Shown here one piece after another: positions 3,169-58,509 of a stretch of 64,000 nucleotides of DNA. The translations under genes were made by a program, and so were the position numbers. Position 1 is the stretch's first letter. Each line of letters begins with the position of its first letter. Source of the stretch: Escherichia phage vB_EcoM_01; sequence record PP129558; one strand, 5' to 3'. The notes beneath the pieces were generated by a model that made no database searches, was not told the DNA's origin, and was given only the letters and a program-made list of their open reading frames with translations.

Positions 3169-3468
3169 ATGAATCTGACTGAACAGTTACGCCGTATTGC
3201 AAAAGAAGCTTCCTTCAACTTCCCTGTTGAAGAAGTGATCGAGACATGTTTTGCTGAAGCACGAGCGGGAAACTCTTCAAGAAATTTCACGCCATCTGAT
3301 TTTGGTCTGGATAATTCCCCTACCCACCCAGGGGCGATCTACAATCAGGTGAAGTGGATGGATGAAGCAGTAGCAATTCTTCGTGAGCGTGGGCTTATTG
3401 TTTATAAAGAAATGGATTTGAACGGGGCATACGAGTGGATCACTATTGATTGGTCGGAGGTGAAATAA
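3169..3468 (+). CDS. Hypothetical protein
   Basis: ORF with AAGGAG RBS. Confidence 0.45.
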   Translation: MNLTEQLRRIAKEASFNFPVEEVIETCFAEARAGNSSRNFTPSDFGLDNSPTHPGAIYNQVKWMDEAVAILRERGLIVYKEMDLNGAYEWITIDWSEVK

Positions 3469-17823: not shown

Positions 17824-18624
17824 TTATTTGTTTAAGTGGTCTTCGACCATTTTAATGAAACCTTCATTGCTGAAGGCTGTTGCAGCTTTTTCTCGGTAAA
17901 CAAAAACTCCACGATCTTCATAGAGAAGTGTTTCTTCGTAATTAACTCCAGGGTTAACTACAACCATTTTTGTTCCGATGTTAAGAGCAGGAAAAAGCTC
18001 CCAGTTAAAATTGATAACTTGATTAGAGCAACCCACTACAATCACCATATCTTGAGCCGTCAAGCCGTCTAAGATGTGGTACATATCGTTATACAATGGG
18101 GCAGTCTCCCCAAAGAACACTACATTGGGCTTCACATACTTGTAATCATCTACATCGATAGCAGCATAGCCAACATCTTTGATGATTCTATTGTCTACGA
18201 TCACTTCAGGCAGGAAGCCGTGAACATGTAGAACATCTTCATGAACAACACCTGCTTGTTCCAGAAGATCATCTACGTTTGTCGTGATGTTGATAACACG
18301 ATCACAGCCGTACTCTTGGAACCACTCTGCGATCTGGTAATGCGCAGCGTTAGGAGACACACTATCCATCTCTACGCGACGTTTATTGTAGAAGTCATGA
18401 GTTTTACGGTAGAGGTTGTATCCCTCTGCATCTAATCCACCAACAGCGCCAGGAACACACTGTTCTTGCTGGTAGCCAGCACGGAAATTGAAAATATCGC
18501 ACACTTCAGAAAGGTCGTATTCATCCCACAAAGCTTTCCCACTATCTGTATCAGTGCGGAAAGTACGTACACCGCTATCGGCGCTTAGACCCGCGCCGCT
18601 GATCACTATTAATCGTCTTGGCAT
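17824..18624 (-). CDS. Sir2-family (sirtuin-like) NAD-binding protein without visible zinc-ribbon module
   Basis: ISGAGLSADSGVRTFR, TNVDDL, HG, VVFFGE, VVGCS motifs; GAGGAGG RBS. Confidence 0.7.
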   Translation of the reverse strand: MPRRLIVISGAGLSADSGVRTFRTDTDSGKALWDEYDLSEVCDIFNFRAGYQQEQCVPGAVGGLDAEGYNLYRKTHDFYNKRRVEMDSVSPNAAHYQIAEWFQEYGCDRVINITTNVDDLLEQAGVVHEDVLHVHGFLPEVIVDNRIIKDVGYAAIDVDDYKYVKPNVVFFGETAPLYNDMYHILDGLTAQDMVIVVGCSNQVINFNWELFPALNIGTKMVVVNPGVNYEETLLYEDRGVFVYREKAATAFSNEGFIKMVEDHLNK

Positions 18625-19158: not shown

Positions 19159-19771
19159 CTATACCAGACTTTCAAGGTATTTGTCAAGGGCTTCTTGATC
19201 ACCTTGACAAACATAGCAACGGAAGTCTTGAGCCGAAGGTTGTTTATTTTCATCCCAGTCCCAATAAACATTACCCTTATAACGTGAACCAGGAAACTCA
19301 AAAGAGGCTGTATGTGTAATGTATCCTGGGCCACCAGTGAAATCACAGAATGAGAATTGAGGATATGCCGCCTTTACTGCCTCAATAAACCAAGCTTTAC
19401 GATCTAAGGCTTCATTGATGCTATATGCATGTCTCTCCATTTCTTCCCAAGTTTTCCAGACACTTCTCTCATCAGGAGAAAAGACAAGCNATTCNGGANG
19501 NGNANNNAGNNGACTCCTCCAGTTTTGAGTAATCAAAAGCAGAATATACCCACCAACCATCCTCCAGTAAGGCTTTGATAGGGACGAAGCCTTTATCAGC
19601 ATATTGATCGAATTGTTTGACACGGTGGCTTGTGCAGTCTTCAAACTCACATTCTAAACGATATGCACCTTTTCGACGAGCCTCAAGACCGTGTGTACTG
19701 AAAATAACAACACTTCCTTCACCATCATTACGATCTACTTGATAAGCAACTACTGGTTTTGAATTTGACAT
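19159..19771 (-). CDS. Hypothetical protein (ORF interrupted by ambiguous bases at 19490-19512)
   Basis: Two table ORFs in same frame across N-containing stretch. Confidence 0.4.
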
Positions 19772-20454
19772 TATTTCTCCTTATCTAGAAGATTGTTAGA
19801 CAAAAACACGGCACGAGCAAAACCACGTGCGGTTAGGGATCTAAGTTGTTTTGTTTTTGCACTAGCTCCACCTAAGCTTTTCCAACCCCAGAAGCAGCCT
19901 ATATGATCTACTGGTTTCTTCACTGGTTGAACAAAACCATTGCCGTGCCAAATACAAGTTTTCTTTGTATACCCATCACGGGTAGGCATTTTAGGATGAA
20001 AGCTTCCTTCCTCTTCAAACAAATACTCACCATACTCATAAGGATCAAAGTAAAAATCGGGTTTACGCCATAAGGTTGAAAGTTTACCTACTGGGTTCTC
20101 AATCATCCAAGGAACATTATATTTGTTACCCAAAGCTTCCACTACACGAATATTAGCTAAAGCTTCATCCAATTCCTCTGTGCTGCGTTCGTGTTTGCTA
20201 CCACTACCTGCTAACATAGTGCAAGGTGGAAATCCAAAAATAATATCGGGTTTAGGTATCCCATGATCTTCAGGGTTGAATGTAGAATCTATCCAGGCAT
20301 TCACATAGGTTATGTTTGGGTGCTCCATCCTAACCTCGTATTTACCGTGATCCCCTTCATCAGCGTTTACACAAAAACACTTGTGACCTGCTTCGGCATA
20401 ACGTAACACCATGATCCCAGATCCGTCAAACATAGACAAAACTGTTTTACTCAT
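19771..20454 (-). CDS. Short DNA (cytosine-5)-methyltransferase-like protein
   Basis: FDGSG (motif I-like), GFPPC (motif IV-like), ENP (motif VI-like). Confidence 0.45.
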   Translation of the reverse strand: MSKTVLSMFDGSGIMVLRYAEAGHKCFCVNADEGDHGKYEVRMEHPNITYVNAWIDSTFNPEDHGIPKPDIIFGFPPCTMLAGSGSKHERSTEELDEALANIRVVEALGNKYNVPWMIENPVGKLSTLWRKPDFYFDPYEYGEYLFEEEGSFHPKMPTRDGYTKKTCIWHGNGFVQPVKKPVDHIGCFWGWKSLGGASAKTKQLRSLTARGFARAVFLSNNLLDKEK

Positions 20455-20860
20455 TACCCCTCCATTCAAGACAAGCCATAACTTTACGCCAATCACTTTC
20501 TGTAAGAAAAATCTCGTTTGCTTTCTTCCACAAATCTAAATCGTGAAGGGTTGGAATACGATATGTTAGTTCACAGAATCTATGCTCTGCTTCTGTAATA
20601 TAACCAAAATGCAGAGCCACATCGTGAAACCAACACCAACCATGCATCTCTCGAACAACATGGTCATGTTGAGACATTATTTTATGCCGTAAACCTAACC
20701 AACAAGGAACAGATACTTTAGTAGTCTTTAATCTGTGTTCAACAGTATTAGAGTATTCAATAATAGCTGTCAGTTTCAATCGTGCTTTTTCTAAATCCTC
20801 ATGCGTCACTTTGAAATAACTTTCTGAAAGATATCCACACATATTAATAACCTCCTTCAA
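20447..20860 (-). CDS. Hypothetical protein
   Basis: ORF. Confidence 0.4.
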   Translation of the reverse strand: MKEVINMCGYLSESYFKVTHEDLEKARLKLTAIIEYSNTVEHRLKTTKVSVPCWLGLRHKIMSQHDHVVREMHGWCWFHDVALHFGYITEAEHRFCELTYRIPTLHDLDLWKKANEIFLTESDWRKVMACLEWRGNE

Positions 20861-21785
20861 AAGGCTTTACTACATGTTGATTAGCTTTAAAACGTTCAAC
20901 ATAGTCGTTTTCGCCCATGTTTTCATATAGCTTAATAACAACATAAAAGTTTTCCCAAGCATATTCCCTAAACCAACCACTAGTGATGGATGTGCAGACT
21001 TTAGATAAAGCCATTATAAAACTTTGCTTAGGGGTTGGACCTCCGATCTCTTCACCGAAAGGAATTTGTGAACGTTCCAAAGCCAAAACACACGCTTCTT
21101 CATAAACACCTAACAGCCGCACATGTTTTGGTTGAGCAAAAAACTTTTCTTTGCTGGTCATAACTTCACTTCCATCTTTCATATAAGATTTATATGCTGG
21201 AGCATCCATTAACGCGATTGCTTCATGGATAGAATCATGATCATAAACATACGGAACCTCGTCACCTTTAAAGAACTCTTTACTTTTTACGTTTAAGTTC
21301 GGATGAGAGTAAGTGTATGTTTCTCTCTCACGCAACTCATAAATACTCTTAAGATTTTCTGGGATCTTTGCGCCCAGTGACCGCATGAAATGAATATCTT
21401 TCATAGTTTTAAAGAAGTGAGGACTATCCTTTTTAAAACGATGACTCATTTTAAGAAGGTAGAGCACATCTAAAGGAGCAACAACATGTCCAGCGTAAGT
21501 TCGACGAACATCATCAGAATCTTCACAATAACTAATCAAAGCTTCTGTGCTATCTCCTTGAGAAGCAATATCGTATTCCAAATGTGCACCAGCTATCATT
21601 TTGACATGGCCTTTGTTCCCTTTACGTTCTACAAGTTCAACAAACTCGTCTTGAGAGAACATTTTTGATAATTCTTCCCACTCTTGTTCTGTACACAGGT
21701 AATCTAAATCTACACAAGGGCGATACAAGTCTTTTCCCATGCCCATAGCATGAATTTGTAATGCACGGCTACCAATTAACACCAT
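20844..21785 (-). CDS. Hypothetical protein with N-terminal GS...DxD motif (possible nucleotidyltransferase fold)
   Basis: LIGSRA ... CVDLD near N-terminus; weak. Confidence 0.35.
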   Translation of the reverse strand: MVLIGSRALQIHAMGMGKDLYRPCVDLDYLCTEQEWEELSKMFSQDEFVELVERKGNKGHVKMIAGAHLEYDIASQGDSTEALISYCEDSDDVRRTYAGHVVAPLDVLYLLKMSHRFKKDSPHFFKTMKDIHFMRSLGAKIPENLKSIYELRERETYTYSHPNLNVKSKEFFKGDEVPYVYDHDSIHEAIALMDAPAYKSYMKDGSEVMTSKEKFFAQPKHVRLLGVYEEACVLALERSQIPFGEEIGGPTPKQSFIMALSKVCTSITSGWFREYAWENFYVVIKLYENMGENDYVERFKANQHVVKPFEGGY

Positions 21786-21845
21786 AATATTTCTCCTCTA
21801 TTGGTTGATAGGTTAAGTTTATCAAGCTTCCAGATTCCTGTCAAT

Positions 21846-21866
21846 AAAAAACCCGCCGAAGCGGGT
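21846..21866 (-). terminator. Rho-independent terminator on minus strand (CCCGC-TTCG-GCGGG + T6)
   Basis: Same stem as the plus-strand terminator at 17161. Confidence 0.6.
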
Positions 21867-21875
21867 TATTATTTA

Positions 21876-22148
21876 CTAACACATTGAGGAAGAAGAGATC
21901 CAAACACCTCTTGTGGTTAAACCATTTTCATCCAACTCTACACCATAATCTTCACAAATGAAATCAATATAGTGATCTGCGGCTGGCGTTCCTGTAGGGT
22001 AATAAGTTTCTCCGTTACCGTAGTCACCTATCCAAGCTTGTTCCTGAAACTGTTCACAAAGTTCTTCAATTTCCTTACGAAACTTTCTTTGTGCTTGTTC
22101 CATCTCTTTAACTTTCTTTTTTATCAGCAGTTCGCCTTCAGACTCCAC
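21876..22148 (-). CDS. Small acidic protein with C-terminal GVWISSSSMC tail
   Basis: ORF; tail shared with neighbours. Confidence 0.45.
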   Translation of the reverse strand: MESEGELLIKKKVKEMEQAQRKFRKEIEELCEQFQEQAWIGDYGNGETYYPTGTPAADHYIDFICEDYGVELDENGLTTRGVWISSSSMC

Positions 22149-22157
22149 AATCTCTCC

Positions 22158-22376
22158 TTAACAGCTACTACTGTGCCAAACGCCTTGAGAATTAACAACG
22201 AAACCATCATCACCTTCACCATAACAAGAAGAGGATTGCCAATCTTCAAAACAGATTGCGTCATCTTCTAAACTAAGACCAAAACCAGCATCTTCAGCTT
22301 CTTTTGTAAGTTCGTCCACCAAAGCCATAATAGCTTGGGCTTTTTCAGTTAATTCTTCAACATTACGATAACTCAT
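22158..22376 (-). CDS. Small acidic protein with internal WQSSSC and C-terminal GVWHSSSC
   Basis: ATG after GAGGAG RBS. Confidence 0.45.
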   Translation of the reverse strand: MSYRNVEELTEKAQAIMALVDELTKEAEDAGFGLSLEDDAICFEDWQSSSCYGEGDDGFVVNSQGVWHSSSC

Positions 22377-22684
22377 TAGTATTTCTCCTCTGGTTGGAAA
22401 ACGGAACGACAGGCCCACATAGAAGCTTCTTTCAACTTAGTCTTTGCTATTGAAATTTGGTCAAGGCGGGTGGATATATTGGTAGACTCTTCCAAATCTT
22501 CACAATCATCCAGTTCAGCCCACAATTCAGACATTAGAGCATCAAAGATTAATCCTAATCGAACTTCAGCATCTTTAATAGCATTCACTTTACCAATTTT
22601 GTCATCGGTATGCGGTTTATAACCTTTGATATCTTCGATTCCCACTTTACCTCCTATTAACAACTTAAAGAAGATGGATGCCAA
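22376..22684 (-). CDS. Hypothetical protein (weakly supported, overlaps neighbours)
   Basis: ORF only; no clear RBS. Confidence 0.3.
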   Translation of the reverse strand: MASIFFKLLIGGKVGIEDIKGYKPHTDDKIGKVNAIKDAEVRLGLIFDALMSELWAELDDCEDLEESTNISTRLDQISIAKTKLKEASMWACRSVFQPEEKY

Positions 22685-22854
22685 TTTGTTCCAGTATTCT
22701 CATTTTCATCTTCTGGATCATAATAACCACCCATCCCATATTCAGGGGAGAAACTGAAACCTTCACCAGTCTCGTCTGCTAACTGCTCTGCTTCCGCTAA
22801 AGCCTCATAAGCTGCTTTTACGGCTTCTTCTACTGTTTTAAACTTGGTCGTCAT
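22657..22854 (-). CDS. Small acidic protein with C-terminal NWHPSSLSC tail
   Basis: ORF; tail motif. Confidence 0.45.
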   Translation of the reverse strand: MTTKFKTVEEAVKAAYEALAEAEQLADETGEGFSFSPEYGMGGYYDPEDENENTGTNWHPSSLSC

Positions 22855-23128: not shown

Positions 23129-23619
23129 AAAACCTCCTCAATCTTGTAGTTTGACTCCATCTCCAACACATTTCCACGAACGTCTCTCCGAAGAAAGGCA
23201 TAAGCTTTATTAGGTATTGTAGACTCATATTTAACCATATCTGGCACAGCAAAAGATACTACTACTCCTGCTGGGCTTCTGTCAAGAGCCTTATTAATAT
23301 TTCTAAGGATATCGTTAGCCAAGATTTCTGCCAATTCTCCAAGAACAGTTTCGGTTATATCTTTATATCCCATTAAATATTTGTTGATATCTTTCATCTC
23401 TGTATTGTTCAGAGTATAGTCCAAAGGATAGAAATTCAAAGCGGAGTCACTTTTATGTGTCCACATGAAATGCACCCGATCCGAGCAGAATCGTAACCCT
23501 CTACGAAGAATATCTTCTACAACAGGCAGAATTTCTTTTGTCACATCATTAACCATGTTGTAATCTAAGATTTCTGCCAAGTTTGTTCTTTGTTCACCAC
23601 GTTTACGTCTAGGAATCAC
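23107..23619 (-). CDS. Hypothetical protein
   Basis: ORF. Confidence 0.4.
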   Translation of the reverse strand: MIPRRKRGEQRTNLAEILDYNMVNDVTKEILPVVEDILRRGLRFCSDRVHFMWTHKSDSALNFYPLDYTLNNTEMKDINKYLMGYKDITETVLGELAEILANDILRNINKALDRSPAGVVVSFAVPDMVKYESTIPNKAYAFLRRDVRGNVLEMESNYKIEEVLWQSSDQ

Positions 23620-24187
23620 TTGTTATCGCCCTCATTACCAAAGGTCGTAGAAAATCGTAAATCTCTTGTTTTGTTTTCCCACGAATGTTTAAACAAGGAA
23701 CATTATTGGCTTTAGCTATCTTCCAAGCCGTAGCTGTTCCACCTTTTGCATCTCCATGTTTATCAGTATTAGCACAAGCCAACAAGAAACATGATGGAGC
23801 AGGATTCTCCAAATCTCTGCCTAACACTTGATGCACATTACGTTGGTGCAATTTTCTAGCACCCTGCTTAAGCTTTTCATAAGCTGGGTGAACATCTTTG
23901 ATCCATTGCACAGAGATAGCATAGTTCATTGTATCTGGTTTTGCAAGAACAATAACATCACCTGGAATCTGATTACCTTTGAAATTTTCCCAAGGAACAT
24001 AAATCTCCTTGTTAGTAGGATTTTCAGACTCTTGGACACCTGTTTCAAAAGCAGAATCACTACCCTCTGCCTTCCCAGACCGTAATTTAAACCCAAGGTT
24101 TGAAAGCCATTTCCCTATGCCTACCATCAAAGCCCACTCTTCTTCAGATATGTCCCTACTTCCAACTCCCGTATAGAACAGTTCTGC
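23609..24187 (-). CDS. DprA/SLOG-like Rossmann-fold protein
   Basis: GVGSR ... SGKAEGSDSAFETG ... GGTATAWKIA pattern; GAGGTG RBS. Confidence 0.4.
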   Translation of the reverse strand, partial: AELFYTGVGSRDISEEEWALMVGIGKWLSNLGFKLRSGKAEGSDSAFETGVQESENPTNKEIYVPWENFKGNQIPGDVIVLAKPDTMNYAISVQWIKDVHPAYEKLKQGARKLHQRNVHQVLGRDLENPAPSCFLLACANTDKHGDAKGGTATAWKIAKANNVPCLNIRGKTKQEIYDFLRPLVMRAITSDS

Positions 24188-24197
24188 CATAATCACC

Positions 24198-24506
24198 TCA
24201 ACAAGTAATTTCAAAAGGTGTATAGGGTTCCGTATTTCTCATGATCCAAGGACTGCTAGGATTGCTCGGATCATAAGGACCAAAAGGTTTTATGGTAGGT
24301 TGTGTTTCTTTCTTCTGAATCTCTTCAAAAATACGACGAAGTTCAGAATATTCTTGATCCACCATAAGATTCGGTGCATCTGATTCTACAGCTTGCAGGT
24401 TATCTTCCTTAAGAACAATCTCACGAACAAGATTAACATCTTCTGTTTCTAAGATAACTTCTTTACGGATATTACCTACACTTTGAATAATTGTAATCTT
24501 ATACAT
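24198..24506 (-). CDS. Hypothetical protein
   Basis: ORF. Confidence 0.4.
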   Translation of the reverse strand: MYKITIIQSVGNIRKEVILETEDVNLVREIVLKEDNLQAVESDAPNLMVDQEYSELRRIFEEIQKKETQPTIKPFGPYDPSNPSSPWIMRNTEPYTPFEITC

Positions 24507-25249
24507 TAATCCTCCTCAAGAGTTGAATAAAATTGAAGACCACCGTCCATATCGAAATAAGCAAATGTTAAGTTATTATTGAACACAGATCCAGTATCCA
24601 TATAAACACGATTCGCATTGATAATAGGTGTTTTTACATAAGAGTGTCCATGAAACACATAATCCACACCCATCACAACAGGAAGTTTCATTCCCTCTTT
24701 AGCACAGTCTACCATATCTCTGTCCCACATAAGTGCTTCAGCAAAACGGTTTTCCTGTGTTTTTGTCATCTTCGAAATGTATTCTGGAATATCTGTTACA
24801 GGGAGATATTCCAAAGAAGATGGATACCCACCATGAATAAACGCAAGTTTCATGCCTCTGTAGTTAACAATGAGAACAACAGGTAAATCTTCTGTCATCA
24901 TTGCTAAGGCTGTAGCTCCTTCTTCACCACATTCTTCAAAGACCGTATATCCTCCATTTTGATACCAACACTCGTAGTAGCTACGATCTCCTTCCAGCAT
25001 ACCTTTAATCATCATGTCTTCATGATTGCCACGAATAGCATAGCGATTGTGTTTACGAGTAAATTCTAAAACACAACGAAAGTTTTGCTTTCCACGGTCA
25101 GTAAGATCTCCTAGAGATACAACCACATCTGTATCTCGGATACCTAACTTTGCCTTTCCTTTTTCATACAAATTATAACAACCGTGTAGATCTCCAATTA
25201 TAAAAAGATCTTGATCGCTTTTAACAGTAATTTCTCTGTGTATGATCAC
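24506..25249 (-). CDS. Ser/Thr protein phosphatase (calcineurin-like metallophosphoesterase, PP-lambda type)
   Basis: GDLHGCY, GDLTDRG, GNHE motifs. Confidence 0.75.
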   Translation of the reverse strand: MIIHREITVKSDQDLFIIGDLHGCYNLYEKGKAKLGIRDTDVVVSLGDLTDRGKQNFRCVLEFTRKHNRYAIRGNHEDMMIKGMLEGDRSYYECWYQNGGYTVFEECGEEGATALAMMTEDLPVVLIVNYRGMKLAFIHGGYPSSLEYLPVTDIPEYISKMTKTQENRFAEALMWDRDMVDCAKEGMKLPVVMGVDYVFHGHSYVKTPIINANRVYMDTGSVFNNNLTFAYFDMDGGLQFYSTLEED

Positions 25250-56495: not shown

Positions 56496-56570
56496 GGCCC
56501 TGTAGCTCAATGGGAGAGCTGTCGGCTCATAACCGATAGGTAGCTGGATCGAAACCAGCCAGGGCCACCA
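56496..56570 (+). tRNA. tRNA with CAT anticodon (Met, or Ile via lysidine)
   Basis: Hand-folded cloverleaf: acceptor GGCCCTG/CAGGGCC, anticodon loop CTCATAA, CCA encoded. Confidence 0.65.
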
Positions 56571-56572
56571 AC

Positions 56573-56647
56573 GTCTTTATGGTGTAATGGATAGCACAGG
56601 AGTCTTCTAAACTCTTAGTCAAGGTTCGATTCCTTGTAAAGACACCA
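56573..56647 (+). tRNA. tRNA-Arg (anticodon TCT)
   Basis: Acceptor GTCTTTA/TAAAGAC, T-arm CAAGG-TTCGATT-CCTTG, loop CTTCTAA. Confidence 0.6.
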
Positions 56648-56844
56648 GAACATTTTAACATGAATTAGCTCAAGTGATTTGAACCCACTACTGATCATGG
56701 TGGCAGAGAATGAGGCAAGTATGTCAGACATTATAAACAAAGGCCACGGTTATATTAGAAGACATAAATGCTCGAAGAGCACCGTTCGTGGAGAGCGGGG
56801 GTTGGTGGAGTCACCATTCATGGTAAAATGTTTTAAAAAACTAT

Positions 56845-56879
56845 TGACAACTAACATTATTTTATGTTAGATTATAAGT
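56845..56879 (+). promoter_or_regulatory. Sigma70-like promoter upstream of tRNA-Ser genes
   Basis: TTGACA at 56845; TTAGAT/TATAAG -10 candidates; upstream A tract. Confidence 0.4.
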
Positions 56880-56881
56880 AT

Positions 56882-56972
56882 GGAAGGGCAAATCGACGTG
56901 GCGACGAAAACGGTCTTGAAAACCGCCGAGCTTGAAAGAGCCTTGGGAGTTCGACTCTCCCTCCTTCCGCCA
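56882..56972 (+). tRNA. tRNA-Ser (anticodon TGA), long variable arm
   Basis: Acceptor GGAAGGG/TCCTTCC, loop CTTGAAA, T-arm GGGAG-TTCGACT-CTCCC; D-arm irregular. Confidence 0.55.
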
Positions 56973-56977
56973 GATTA

Positions 56978-57063
56978 GGTAGATTGGTGAAATGGTAGCC
57001 ACGACAGTTTGCTAAACTGTAGTCGGAAACGGCGTGTAGGTTCGAGTCCTACATCTACCGCCA
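56978..57063 (+). tRNA. tRNA-Ser (anticodon GCT), long variable arm
   Basis: Acceptor GGTAGAT/ATCTACC, anticodon arm ACAGT-TTGCTAA-ACTGT. Confidence 0.7.
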
Positions 57064-57193
57064 AGTTCTTTTTAATGTAGCTTACTTTAGCAGAGTAAAT
57101 CTTCGGCAAGTGGCGGTAACCACTTTACCGATACCTCATAGTTAGTGGTGAGAACACTGGCTATTTTAAAAAGAATTTAAATATTAGTATTTA

Positions 57194-57281
57194 GGTGAGT
57201 TAATTCCGTAGGGGTAGCGGGGCAGACTGTAAATCTGTTATCATTGCGATTCGGGTGGTTCGACTCCATCACTCACCACCA
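57194..57281 (+). tRNA. tRNA-Tyr (anticodon GTA), long variable arm
   Basis: Acceptor GGTGAGT/ACTCACC, loop CTGTAAA. Confidence 0.6.
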
Positions 57282-57287
57282 AATTAA

Positions 57288-57373
57288 GATGAGTTGGCTG
57301 AATGGTTTAAGCGGCGGACTGTTAATCCGTGTTCGAAAGAACAATATAGGTTCGAATCCTATACTCATCGCCA
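57288..57373 (+). tRNA. tRNA with long variable arm, anticodon uncertain (best fold reads GTT)
   Basis: Acceptor GATGAGT/ACTCATC, T-arm ATAGG-TTCGAAT-CCTAT; D-arm poorly formed. Confidence 0.45.
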
Positions 57374-57463
57374 GAATTATGGACTTGTAGAGTTAAGGTA
57401 AACCCCCAGTCGCCAATAGGCTTCTGGAATTGCAGGTATCGAATCCTGCCGAGTCCCAGCATT

Positions 57464-57538
57464 GCTCCTATAGTATAATGGCTATTACAACGGTTTTGTA
57501 ATCCGTGGATCTCTGTTCGATTCAGTGTGGGAGCACCA
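57464..57538 (+). tRNA. tRNA-Thr (anticodon TGT)
   Basis: Acceptor GCTCCTA/TGGGAGC, loop TTTGTAA, T-loop TTCGATT. Confidence 0.55.
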
Positions 57539-57811
57539 ACACAACATTAAGAGCACTGTGATTGATCGTCGTATCCTGTGCACAAGGTCTGCTCGAAAGA
57601 CAGTGTTCTTAGTATTGTGTTGATCACAAAAAGAGTCACCCGAAACTTGACCGGAGTAGGGTTGGATGGGGCAAAATGAGAAGCGGCTCTCCCATCGACA
57701 GCAACGAAGAATAATATTTGACTTTGGTTTTGTATTATTTTAAGTTAGCTTACCGAACGTAGGGCTAGTCACCCAACGGGATACTCGTCACTGTCCCAAT
57801 CAATAAAAGTC

Positions 57812-57840
57812 TTGACAACAAATAGTAAAATGTAGTATAG
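57812..57840 (+). promoter_or_regulatory. Sigma70-like promoter (TTGACA-N16-TAGTAT) inside tRNA region
   Basis: Motif upstream of tRNA-Gly. Confidence 0.45.
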
Positions 57841-57852
57841 TAAATATATAGG

Positions 57853-57926
57853 GCGTTCTTGGTGTAGCGGTAGCATTCCGTCCTTCCAAGTCGGCGGCAC
57901 GAGTTCGATCCTCGTAGAACGCTCCA
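57853..57926 (+). tRNA. tRNA-Gly (anticodon TCC)
   Basis: Acceptor GCGTTCT/AGAACGC, T-arm ACGAG-TTCGATC-CTCGT, loop CTTCCAA. Confidence 0.6.
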
Positions 57927-58024
57927 AATTATTTAATAAAGGGTTGCCAGAAAACTTTCTCTTTTACTCATGGTTTTCTCCTTCTCTCACACTTCTTCTG
58001 GTTGCCCTTCATTAAATGATTTAT

Positions 58025-58100
58025 TGGTTTGTAGTGTAGTCCGGTAGCACACGACACTTTGACTGTCGTAGGTTTGGTTCAAATCCAGACAGACCAGCCA
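58025..58100 (+). tRNA. tRNA-Gln (anticodon TTG)
   Basis: Acceptor TGGTTTG/CAGACCA, anticodon arm CGACA-CTTTGAC-TGTCG. Confidence 0.65.
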
Positions 58101-58267
58101 TATAACGGAATTTAGCTCAGTTTGGTAGAGCGTACGCTTTGGGAGCGTAGGGTCGCAGGTTCGAATCCTGCAATNCNGACAGACCAGCCATATAACGGAA
58201 TTTAGCTCAGTTTGGTAGAGCGTACGCTTTGGGAGCGTAGGGTCGCAGGTTCGAATCCTGCAATTCC
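58088..58267. repeat. Exact ~90-bp tandem duplication spanning tRNA-Gln 3' end and tRNA-Pro, N bases at junction (probable assembly artifact)
   Basis: 58088-58177 equals 58178-58267; Ns at 58175 and 58177. Confidence 0.7.
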
Positions 58268-58272
58268 GACCA
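58196..58272 (+). tRNA. tRNA-Pro (anticodon TGG); a redundant copy at 58106-58182 lacks a proper 3' end
   Basis: Acceptor CGGAATT/AATTCCG, anticodon arm TACGC-TTTGGGA-GCGTA, T-loop TTCGAAT. Confidence 0.65.
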
Positions 58273-58278
58273 ATTAAA

Positions 58279-58352
58279 TGTTTCGTAGTTCAATGGTAGA
58301 ACCCACGACTGATAATCGTGAGACACAAGTTCGATTCTTGTCGAAACAACCA
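58279..58352 (+). tRNA. tRNA-Ile (anticodon GAT)
   Basis: Acceptor TGTTTCG/CGAAACA, anticodon arm CACGA-CTGATAA-TCGTG. Confidence 0.7.
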
Positions 58353-58430
58353 GTTTCCCGTTAGACTTACAGGATAAGAGATCCACAATTTATTGTGACG
58401 CTGGTTCGAATCCAGCACGGGATACCTAAT

Positions 58431-58509
58431 AGCGGGATAGAGGAGTCTGGTCGTCCTCGCCAGTTTCATATGCTGGAGATCATTGGTTCAAATCCAATTC
58501 CCGCCTCCA
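58431..58509 (+). tRNA. Second tRNA with CAT anticodon (Met/fMet or Ile2), A1-C72 mismatch
   Basis: T-arm ATTGG-TTCAAAT-CCAAT, anticodon arm CCAGT-TTCATAT-GCTGG. Confidence 0.5.

Follow-up and report, generated by a model that had tools for sequence, protein, structure and literature searches.

Several described systems serve here for comparison. In GlnD/PII and MntA/HepT, a nucleotidyltransferase of the Pol-beta fold nucleotidylylates a small partner protein on a Tyr in a loop. In the MenA-MenT and AbiEi-AbiEii toxin-antitoxin pairs, a small upstream gene is followed by one for a ~300-aa protein with an N-terminal GS/GG...D-x-D motif. The Acb2/Tad1 proteins are small phage sponges for cyclic nucleotides, and epidermin-type peptides use a Ser and a C-terminal Cys in S-x-x-C spacing to form AviCys. 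Here we examined three small acidic phage genes that encode a C-terminal Trp/Ser/Cys tail. The closest entries are catalogue families with no assigned function: PHROG 899 for the small proteins, and Pfam DUF7277 + DUF7275 and PHROG 2141 for the protein encoded downstream. None of these entries records the tail motif, the subfamily structure or the linkage between the two families described below, and full-text searches for their names returned no papers. Literature searches with motif strings, RB69 ORF names and keyword combinations also found nothing relevant; a paper on the QueC family and one on jumbo phages proved unrelated.

The genes lie in a 64,000-nucleotide stretch of Escherichia phage vB_EcoM_01 (PP129558), referred to as the window. 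The region is 99-100% identical to phAPEC8-like phages of E. coli (Phapecoctavirus, Stephanstirmvirinae), in which the four genes between 21876 and 22854 correspond to gp188-gp191, all annotated as hypothetical proteins. The features of the locus are as follows.

22657-22854, minus strand: paralogue A, 65 aa, pI 4.05, with the motif Y-G-M-G-G and the tail N-W-H-P-S-S-L-S-C (ending ...TGTNWHPSSLSC); phAPEC8 gp188.
22376-22645, minus strand: an 89-aa Acb2/Tad1-hairpin protein (anti-CBASS cyclic-oligonucleotide sponge family), not a member of the tail family; its TAA stop overlaps the ATG of paralogue B (TAATG).
22158-22376, minus strand: paralogue B, 72 aa from the ATG, pI 4.05, with an internal D-W-Q-S-S-S-C followed by Y-G-E-G and a short tail, ending ...QGVWHSSSC; phAPEC8 gp190.
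21876-22148, minus strand: paralogue C, 90 aa, GTG start, pI 4.40, with the motif Y-G-N-G-E-T-Y-Y-P and ending ...RGVWISSSSMC; phAPEC8 gp191.
21850-21867, minus strand: an intrinsic terminator-like hairpin (AACCCGC-TTCG-GCGGGTT followed by a T run) directly after paralogue C; the same site is annotated as a terminator in phAPEC8.
21816-21844, minus strand: a sigma-70-like promoter match (TTGACA, 17 nt, TAAACT, with TG) ahead of the partner gene; this is a consensus match only, and the number of such matches in the region is not above the shuffled expectation.
20844-21785, minus strand: the partner gene, 91 nt downstream of C, encoding a 313-aa DUF7277 + DUF7275 protein (Pfam E = 2.7e-75 and 2.9e-13; phrog_2141); phAPEC8 gp192.

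We first asked if the three ORFs and their tails were real. A first-pass annotation made from the sequence alone had described three adjacent minus-strand ORFs with acidic, divergent N-terminal parts and a conserved Trp-Ser/Cys tail, and had suggested a paralogous family under selection for the tail. The observation was confirmed. No other real-sized ORF in the window carried such a tail, and no other ORF matched the family HMMs. PHROG 899, an independent profile, matched all three with E = 1.4e-13 (A), 7e-6 (B) and 5.1e-14 (C), in each case at profile positions about 148-221. The loose tail pattern occurred in only 4 of 4373 control ORFs from related loci. Each gene has an AGGAG-type ribosome-binding site. 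Compared with the orthologues in Pseudomonas phage PsgM04F, amino-acid identity was 72-82% and dN was 0.12-0.17 (0.12 for A) while synonymous sites were saturated; for B, dN/dS was 0.12. We therefore rejected chance similarity and non-coding ORFs, and regard these as coding genes under purifying selection. Two points of the description needed correction. The genes are not strictly adjacent, since the unrelated Acb2/Tad1-hairpin gene (PF24729, E = 1.2e-19; phrog_717, E = 2.4e-30) lies between A and B. Nor are the bodies merely divergent: with the tails removed, A-type and C-type profiles still aligned (hhalign 97.5%, E = 5e-12), although the B-type body aligned only weakly (66%, E = 6e-5), so that homology extends beyond the tail for A and C.

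A profile search of 1.84 billion representative proteins showed that the family is large, with 541 clusters at 50% identity (E ≤ 0.001) in which the match nearly always ran to the last residue. Pairwise BLAST between A, B and C was marginal or empty, indicating that they are old paralogues. The consensus is an amphipathic N-terminal helix, a small sheet with a Y-G-x-G turn (...A-D-E-x-G-x-x-F-S-F-x-x-A-Y-G-M-G-G-T-Y-Y-P), an acidic linker that often holds extra W-[D/E]-x-S mini-repeats, and G-W-x-S-S-S-x-x-C. In 143 of the 148 hits analysed (the best 150 minus relatives of the window), W at -7, S at -4, S at -3 and a terminal Cys were invariant; 93 of the 148 had a single Cys, and the median pI was 4.5. 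Some variants lack the Cys or extend one or two residues past it. We defined the family by a C-terminal W-x(1-2)-[S/P/A]-S-S-x(0-3)-Cys with Cys as the last residue, acidity, and a Y-G-x-G turn in most subfamilies; A, B and C all end in this way, and Y-G was invariant in one alignment of the family. Homologues of C were found in Edwardsiella phage PEi20 and Enterobacter phage Entb_45. Pfam and NCBIfam searches gave no family for the small proteins, and PDB sequence and profile searches for A and C gave nothing credible. Peroxiredoxin-4 hits to C (E = 0.04-0.4) were treated as chance. Every database entry returned by our searches calls the small proteins hypothetical or uncharacterized.

An AF2 model of C was confident (pLDDT 93.7) and placed the tail as a beta-strand plus a short helix packed into the domain (pLDDT about 85), rather than as a free tail. 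A fold search of BFVD returned only uncharacterised family members, consistent with a predicted fold that is new. This bears on the suggestion that the tail is a RiPP-like or scaffold-peptide core, remodelled by Ser dehydration and Cys addition, by AviCys-type chemistry on S-x-x-C-COOH or by a pearlin-like C-terminal pathway, and possibly released. The invariant Ser at -3 and terminal Cys, and the tandem precursor-like genes upstream of one enzyme-like gene, would fit such a scheme. However, the conservation pattern is the reverse of that of typical RiPPs, which have a conserved leader and a variable core, the tail is modelled as part of a folded domain, and B has S-S-S-C with no spacer. The neighbouring genes scanned carried only DUF7275/DUF7277, Sir2, DprA-like, methyltransferase-like and unknown families, with no LanB/C/M/D, YcaO, radical-SAM, protease or exporter family among them. 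The only lanthipeptide hit (SflA, NF038148, to B; E = 0.05, 13.5 bits against a cut-off of 25) did not fall on the tail. We consider this reading very unlikely.

We then asked if the tail genes have a conserved neighbour. RB69, a T4-like phage unrelated to phAPEC8, has the same layout: three tail genes, ORF139c/138c (apparently one gene split in two), ORF137c and ORF136c, are followed by ORF134c, which is 43% identical to window gene 20844-21785. A degenerate DNA pattern for the family gave 44 hits in viral contigs, of which about 13 were chance matches and about 31 were real loci. All 21 loci with enough downstream flank carried a DUF7275 homologue (35-50% identity) on the same strand within about 0-1.5 kb, directly after the tail genes, and the loci without one were exactly those cut off on that side. 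No other neighbour was shared across the loci; MazG-like, NrdH-like and SleB-like genes each occurred in only 8-10 loci and were rejected as parts of the module. In the reverse direction, 72 of 80 viral loci anchored on DUF7275 had at least one tail ORF within 5 kb upstream on the same strand, 61 had two or more, and some had five, against the control rate of 4 of 4373 ORFs. Most of the 8 misses carried variant tails. The arrangement was also seen in PsgM04F, in Acinetobacter phage Berthold and in all 6 hits among 185,579 prokaryote species genomes, all of which are contigs from metagenome bins. Tail genes often abut or overlap the start of the partner gene, which suggests coupled translation, although in the window the terminator and the promoter-like site separate the two. 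Gordonia phage Aphelion has a shorter DUF7275 homologue with no recognisable tail gene nearby, and Brevibacillus phage Sundance has, upstream of its homologue, an (EEEEYSSSYY)x2 ending that lacks the Cys.

Clustering of 315 tail ORFs gave at least 16 subfamilies, each single-copy per locus. A belongs to subfamily 0, the commonest type (60 loci), B to subfamily 2 (27 loci) and C to subfamily 1, which is shared with T4-like phages (33 loci). The x positions of the tail are conserved within each subfamily, and we conclude that the paralogues are ancient and non-redundant; this is what distinct partners or substrates would look like, rather than redundant copies. The same pattern raises the possibility of a non-covalent hetero-oligomer, assembled through the N-terminal amphipathic helices with or without the DUF7275 protein, in which the C-terminal Cys residues, each with its free carboxylate, would come together to hold a metal ion or cluster and nothing would be transferred to the tail. 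Consistent with this, genomes keep 2-5 different single-copy subfamilies, only one Cys per protein is conserved so that any metal site would need several chains, the tail is modelled as folded with subfamily-specific residues, and translation may be coupled to that of the partner. On the other hand, 11 of 80 partner loci have only one tail gene, the paralogue sets differ between phage groups, and not all variants end in Cys. We regard this alternative, in which the oligomer is only inferred, as possible but doubtful.

We next examined the partner protein. Twenty-two homologues share invariant G5-S6...D26-x-D28...E70 at the N-terminus, which resembles the Pol-beta nucleotidyltransferase signature but with a longer spacer than the classical motif, hG[GS]-x(9-13+)-D-h-[DE]-h plus a third carboxylate on the NTase fold. 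The C-terminal domain, rich in His, Asp and Arg, has invariant K112, H115, R135, R152, D182-H183-D184, H187, E229-E230, E237-R238 and S269-G-W271. Support for the nucleotidyltransferase reading is thin: one weak NTP_transf_5 hit was found, in 1 of 22 homologues (E = 0.026), and two GenBank records label a homologue 'putative nucleotidyltransferase'. Pfam, NCBIfam, PADLOC and PDB profile searches gave nothing beyond DUF7275/DUF7277, and hhalign of the partner profile against E. coli Cca and GlnE was negative. We also compared the C-terminal domain with the HD phosphohydrolases, which carry an H...HD...D metal-binding motif on the HD fold: H115, D182-H183-D184 and H187 are invariant, but there was no HD-family HMM hit. 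A single-sequence structure model had a pLDDT of only 35.9. The N-terminal G-S...R-x-x-x-D-x-D resembles motif I of AbiEii/MenT, and together with the small acidic genes directly upstream it suggests that the partner could be a toxic nucleotidyltransferase held in check or directed by antitoxin-like tail proteins. No hit to AbiEii (PF08843/DUF1814) or to any defence model was found at E ≤ 10 in Pfam or PADLOC for any of the 22 homologues, and up to five different antitoxins for one toxin would be unusual. The carriers identified by name are mostly large T4-like or phAPEC8-like myoviruses, which are virulent phages in which plasmid-style addiction makes little sense. This alternative seems unlikely.

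The module appears to be accessory. In RB69 it is inserted between e.2 and e.3, whereas in T4 those two genes abut. Acb2 is nested in the array in the phAPEC8 group, is absent from the same array in PsgM04F and lies 4-5 kb away in several T4-like phages; we therefore regard it as a neighbour in the same plastic region and not as part of the module. The accessory region also holds Sir2 and methyltransferase-like genes. It could be argued that the tail proteins are stand-alone anti-defence or host-takeover inhibitors, each blocking a different host protein as a nucleic-acid mimic or ligand sponge with the tail as a shared warhead, and that the linkage to DUF7275 reflects only a shared island. 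The small size, acidity and largely phage-restricted distribution of the proteins are consistent with this, as is the absence of the module from the syntenic site in T4. However, island co-residence does not explain same-strand, immediately upstream linkage in both directions across unrelated phage groups when no other neighbour is conserved, and we found no fold or sequence similarity to Acb2/Tad, Ocr or any solved structure. We consider this explanation unlikely.

The interpretation offered in the first-pass annotation was thus partly supported. The three genes are paralogues of one family, and the tail is its most constrained part. The Y-G-x-G motif and shared fold, the intervening Acb2 gene and the near-obligate linkage to the DUF7277+DUF7275 gene, which is the strongest functional clue, had been missed. 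Of the functions that it proposed for the tail (a metal- or ligand-binding site, a modification or recognition signal, or a precursor-like core), which computation alone does not separate, the linkage to an enzyme-like protein favours a modification or recognition signal, and a classical precursor core is disfavoured.

We tentatively propose that the family to which the paralogues A, B and C belong, one of small, acidic, cytoplasmic alpha/beta proteins, does not work alone but forms one half of a two-part module with the DUF7277+DUF7275 protein, and that the C-terminal Trp-x-Ser-Ser-x-x-Cys-COOH is the element through which each paralogue engages it. The more likely version is that the tail is an acceptor: the Pol-beta-like N-terminal domain would transfer a nucleotide- or phosphate-linked group to a tail Ser hydroxyl or the Cys thiol, and the His/Asp-rich C-terminal domain may remove it. 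The less specific version is that the tail is only a docking site. The extra W-[D/E]-x-S mini-repeats and the Sundance ending both look like a short linear acceptor or recognition motif. Against this proposal, the tail is modelled as folded, its subfamily-specific residues suit a structural role as well as an acceptor role, the transferase assignment rests on a motif, a terminator and a promoter-like site separate the array from the partner gene in the window, the Gordonia phage has a DUF7275 homologue without a recognisable tail gene, some variants, among them that of Sundance, lack the Cys, and there is no direct evidence of binding or modification. Our analysis establishes that the genes are real, that the family and its tail are conserved with a fold (as predicted) that is new, that the linkage holds in both directions, that the subfamilies are single-copy per phage and that the module is very largely phage-borne; physical interaction between the tail proteins and the partner, transferase chemistry and a role, probably in host takeover or counter-defence, are inferred. 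A more speculative and unlikely possibility is that the partner uses the tail serines or the terminal Cys as a primer or acceptor to build protein-linked nucleotides or short oligonucleotides, so that each paralogue would act as a decoy or sponge against a different host nucleic-acid-sensing or nucleotide-signalling defence. If true, this would be a new class of enzymatically armed phage counter-defence proteins.

The module is common. The partner was found in 700 of 50,697 deposited phage genomes, including the model phage RB69 and many E. coli, Klebsiella, Acinetobacter, Aeromonas and Pseudomonas phages; RB69 and phAPEC8-type phages grow on laboratory E. coli, which makes the pairing directly testable. 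A near-obligate pairing of an enzyme-like protein with sets of small proteins that share this C-terminal motif points to a biochemical activity not yet described in phage-host biology, for which a new protein modification, a new carrier or cofactor arrangement, or a new type of counter-defence are candidates.

In comparison with described systems, the Acb2/Tad1 sponges are likewise small phage proteins found in the same accessory regions, but the tail proteins did not qualify as members of that family, nor as DNA-mimic anti-restriction proteins of the Ocr or ArdA type, which have an elongated acidic fold that mimics B-DNA. Lanthipeptide or AviCys precursors share Ser residues, a C-terminal Cys with S-x-x-C spacing and tandem small genes next to an enzyme, but the tail proteins failed the RiPP precursor criteria, lacking neighbouring RiPP enzymes among the genes scanned and having a conserved tail within a modelled folded domain. 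MenA-MenT and AbiEi-AbiEii resemble the locus in gene order and in the N-terminal motif of the larger protein, but without an HMM match to AbiEii or any defence model, and here the module is very largely phage-borne with up to five upstream paralogues. GlnD/PII and MntA/HepT provide the working analogy of an enzyme with a G-S...D-x-D...E signature encoded next to small folded proteins that carry an invariant hydroxyl-bearing motif, although we detected no sequence homology, the motif here is a C-terminal Ser/Cys tail rather than a Tyr in a loop, multi-paralogue sets are not known in those systems, and transfer here is inferred only by analogy. On these comparisons the system lies outside every described kind; if the transferase idea proves right, it would turn out to be a distant variant of protein nucleotidylylation.

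We next looked at the genes that surround and interrupt the tail-protein array. Three features of the window were noted:
22376-22645, minus strand: a gene of the Acb2/Tad1-hairpin (anti-CBASS sponge) family, nested inside the tail-protein array.
17824-18624, 19771-20496, 23609-24214 and 24506-25249, all minus strand: genes of the surrounding block, comprising a Sir2-family protein, a methyltransferase-like protein, a DprA-like protein, and an ORF that aligns with the phAPEC8 gene annotated NinI-like phosphatase.
56496-58509, plus strand: a cluster of 11 tRNA genes (two Met, Arg, Ser, Asn, Thr, Gly, Gln, two Pro and Ile).

The TAA stop of the Acb2/Tad1-hairpin gene overlaps the ATG of the tail-protein gene B. 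This gene is absent from the same array in phage PsgM04F, and in several T4-like phages it lies 4-5 kb from the module. The content of the surrounding minus-strand block is consistent with an accessory or host-interaction region.

In environmental viral loci (L007, L014, L026-L028, L047 and similar), NrdH/glutaredoxin-like genes (about 75 aa) and MazG-like genes (about 137 aa) are interspersed with the tail paralogues in 8-9 loci, and a SleB-like secreted protein lies upstream in about 10 loci. In L014 (5350-5664), L016 (662-1066) and their relatives, which form cluster c10, acidic proteins located between tail paralogues carry an internal W-E-A-S-G-G-C-E-W-E-E-S motif and end in Y-G-W-N-V; these may be another divergent branch in which the Cys is not terminal. 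In locus L033 (3594-4166), one 190-aa tail protein has an N-terminal WYL_2 (Sm-like SH3 barrel) domain (E = 3.9e-8).

Two phages depart from the common pattern. In the locus from Brevibacillus phage Sundance (L135), the gene upstream of the DUF7275 homologue (3175-3456) ends in EEEEYSSSYYEEEEYSSSYYEED, where Tyr replaces Trp, the motif is duplicated and there is no Cys. This suggests that aromatic-Ser-Ser-Ser in an acidic setting is the core motif. In the locus from Gordonia phage Aphelion (L134, 3312-4103), a shorter DUF7275 homologue of 263 aa keeps the G-S...D-x-D motif but lacks the S-G-W-F-R motif. It has no recognisable tail gene nearby and sits next to a tRNA cluster, and the actinophage version may work differently.

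Finally, we compared the module-bearing region of RB69 with the corresponding region of T4. In RB69 (locus L002, 3995-4301), RB69ORF139c and ORF138c together look like a single C-type tail gene (YGSGRTYYP ... GAWVSSPALC) that appears to be split by a frameshift or by a sequencing or annotation error. Whereas RB69 carries the roughly 4-kb module between e.2 and e.3, these two genes abut directly in T4 (locus L137, 7653-8320), where vs.4, at the position expected for an Acb2-type gene, lies about 4.5 kb away in the same region.
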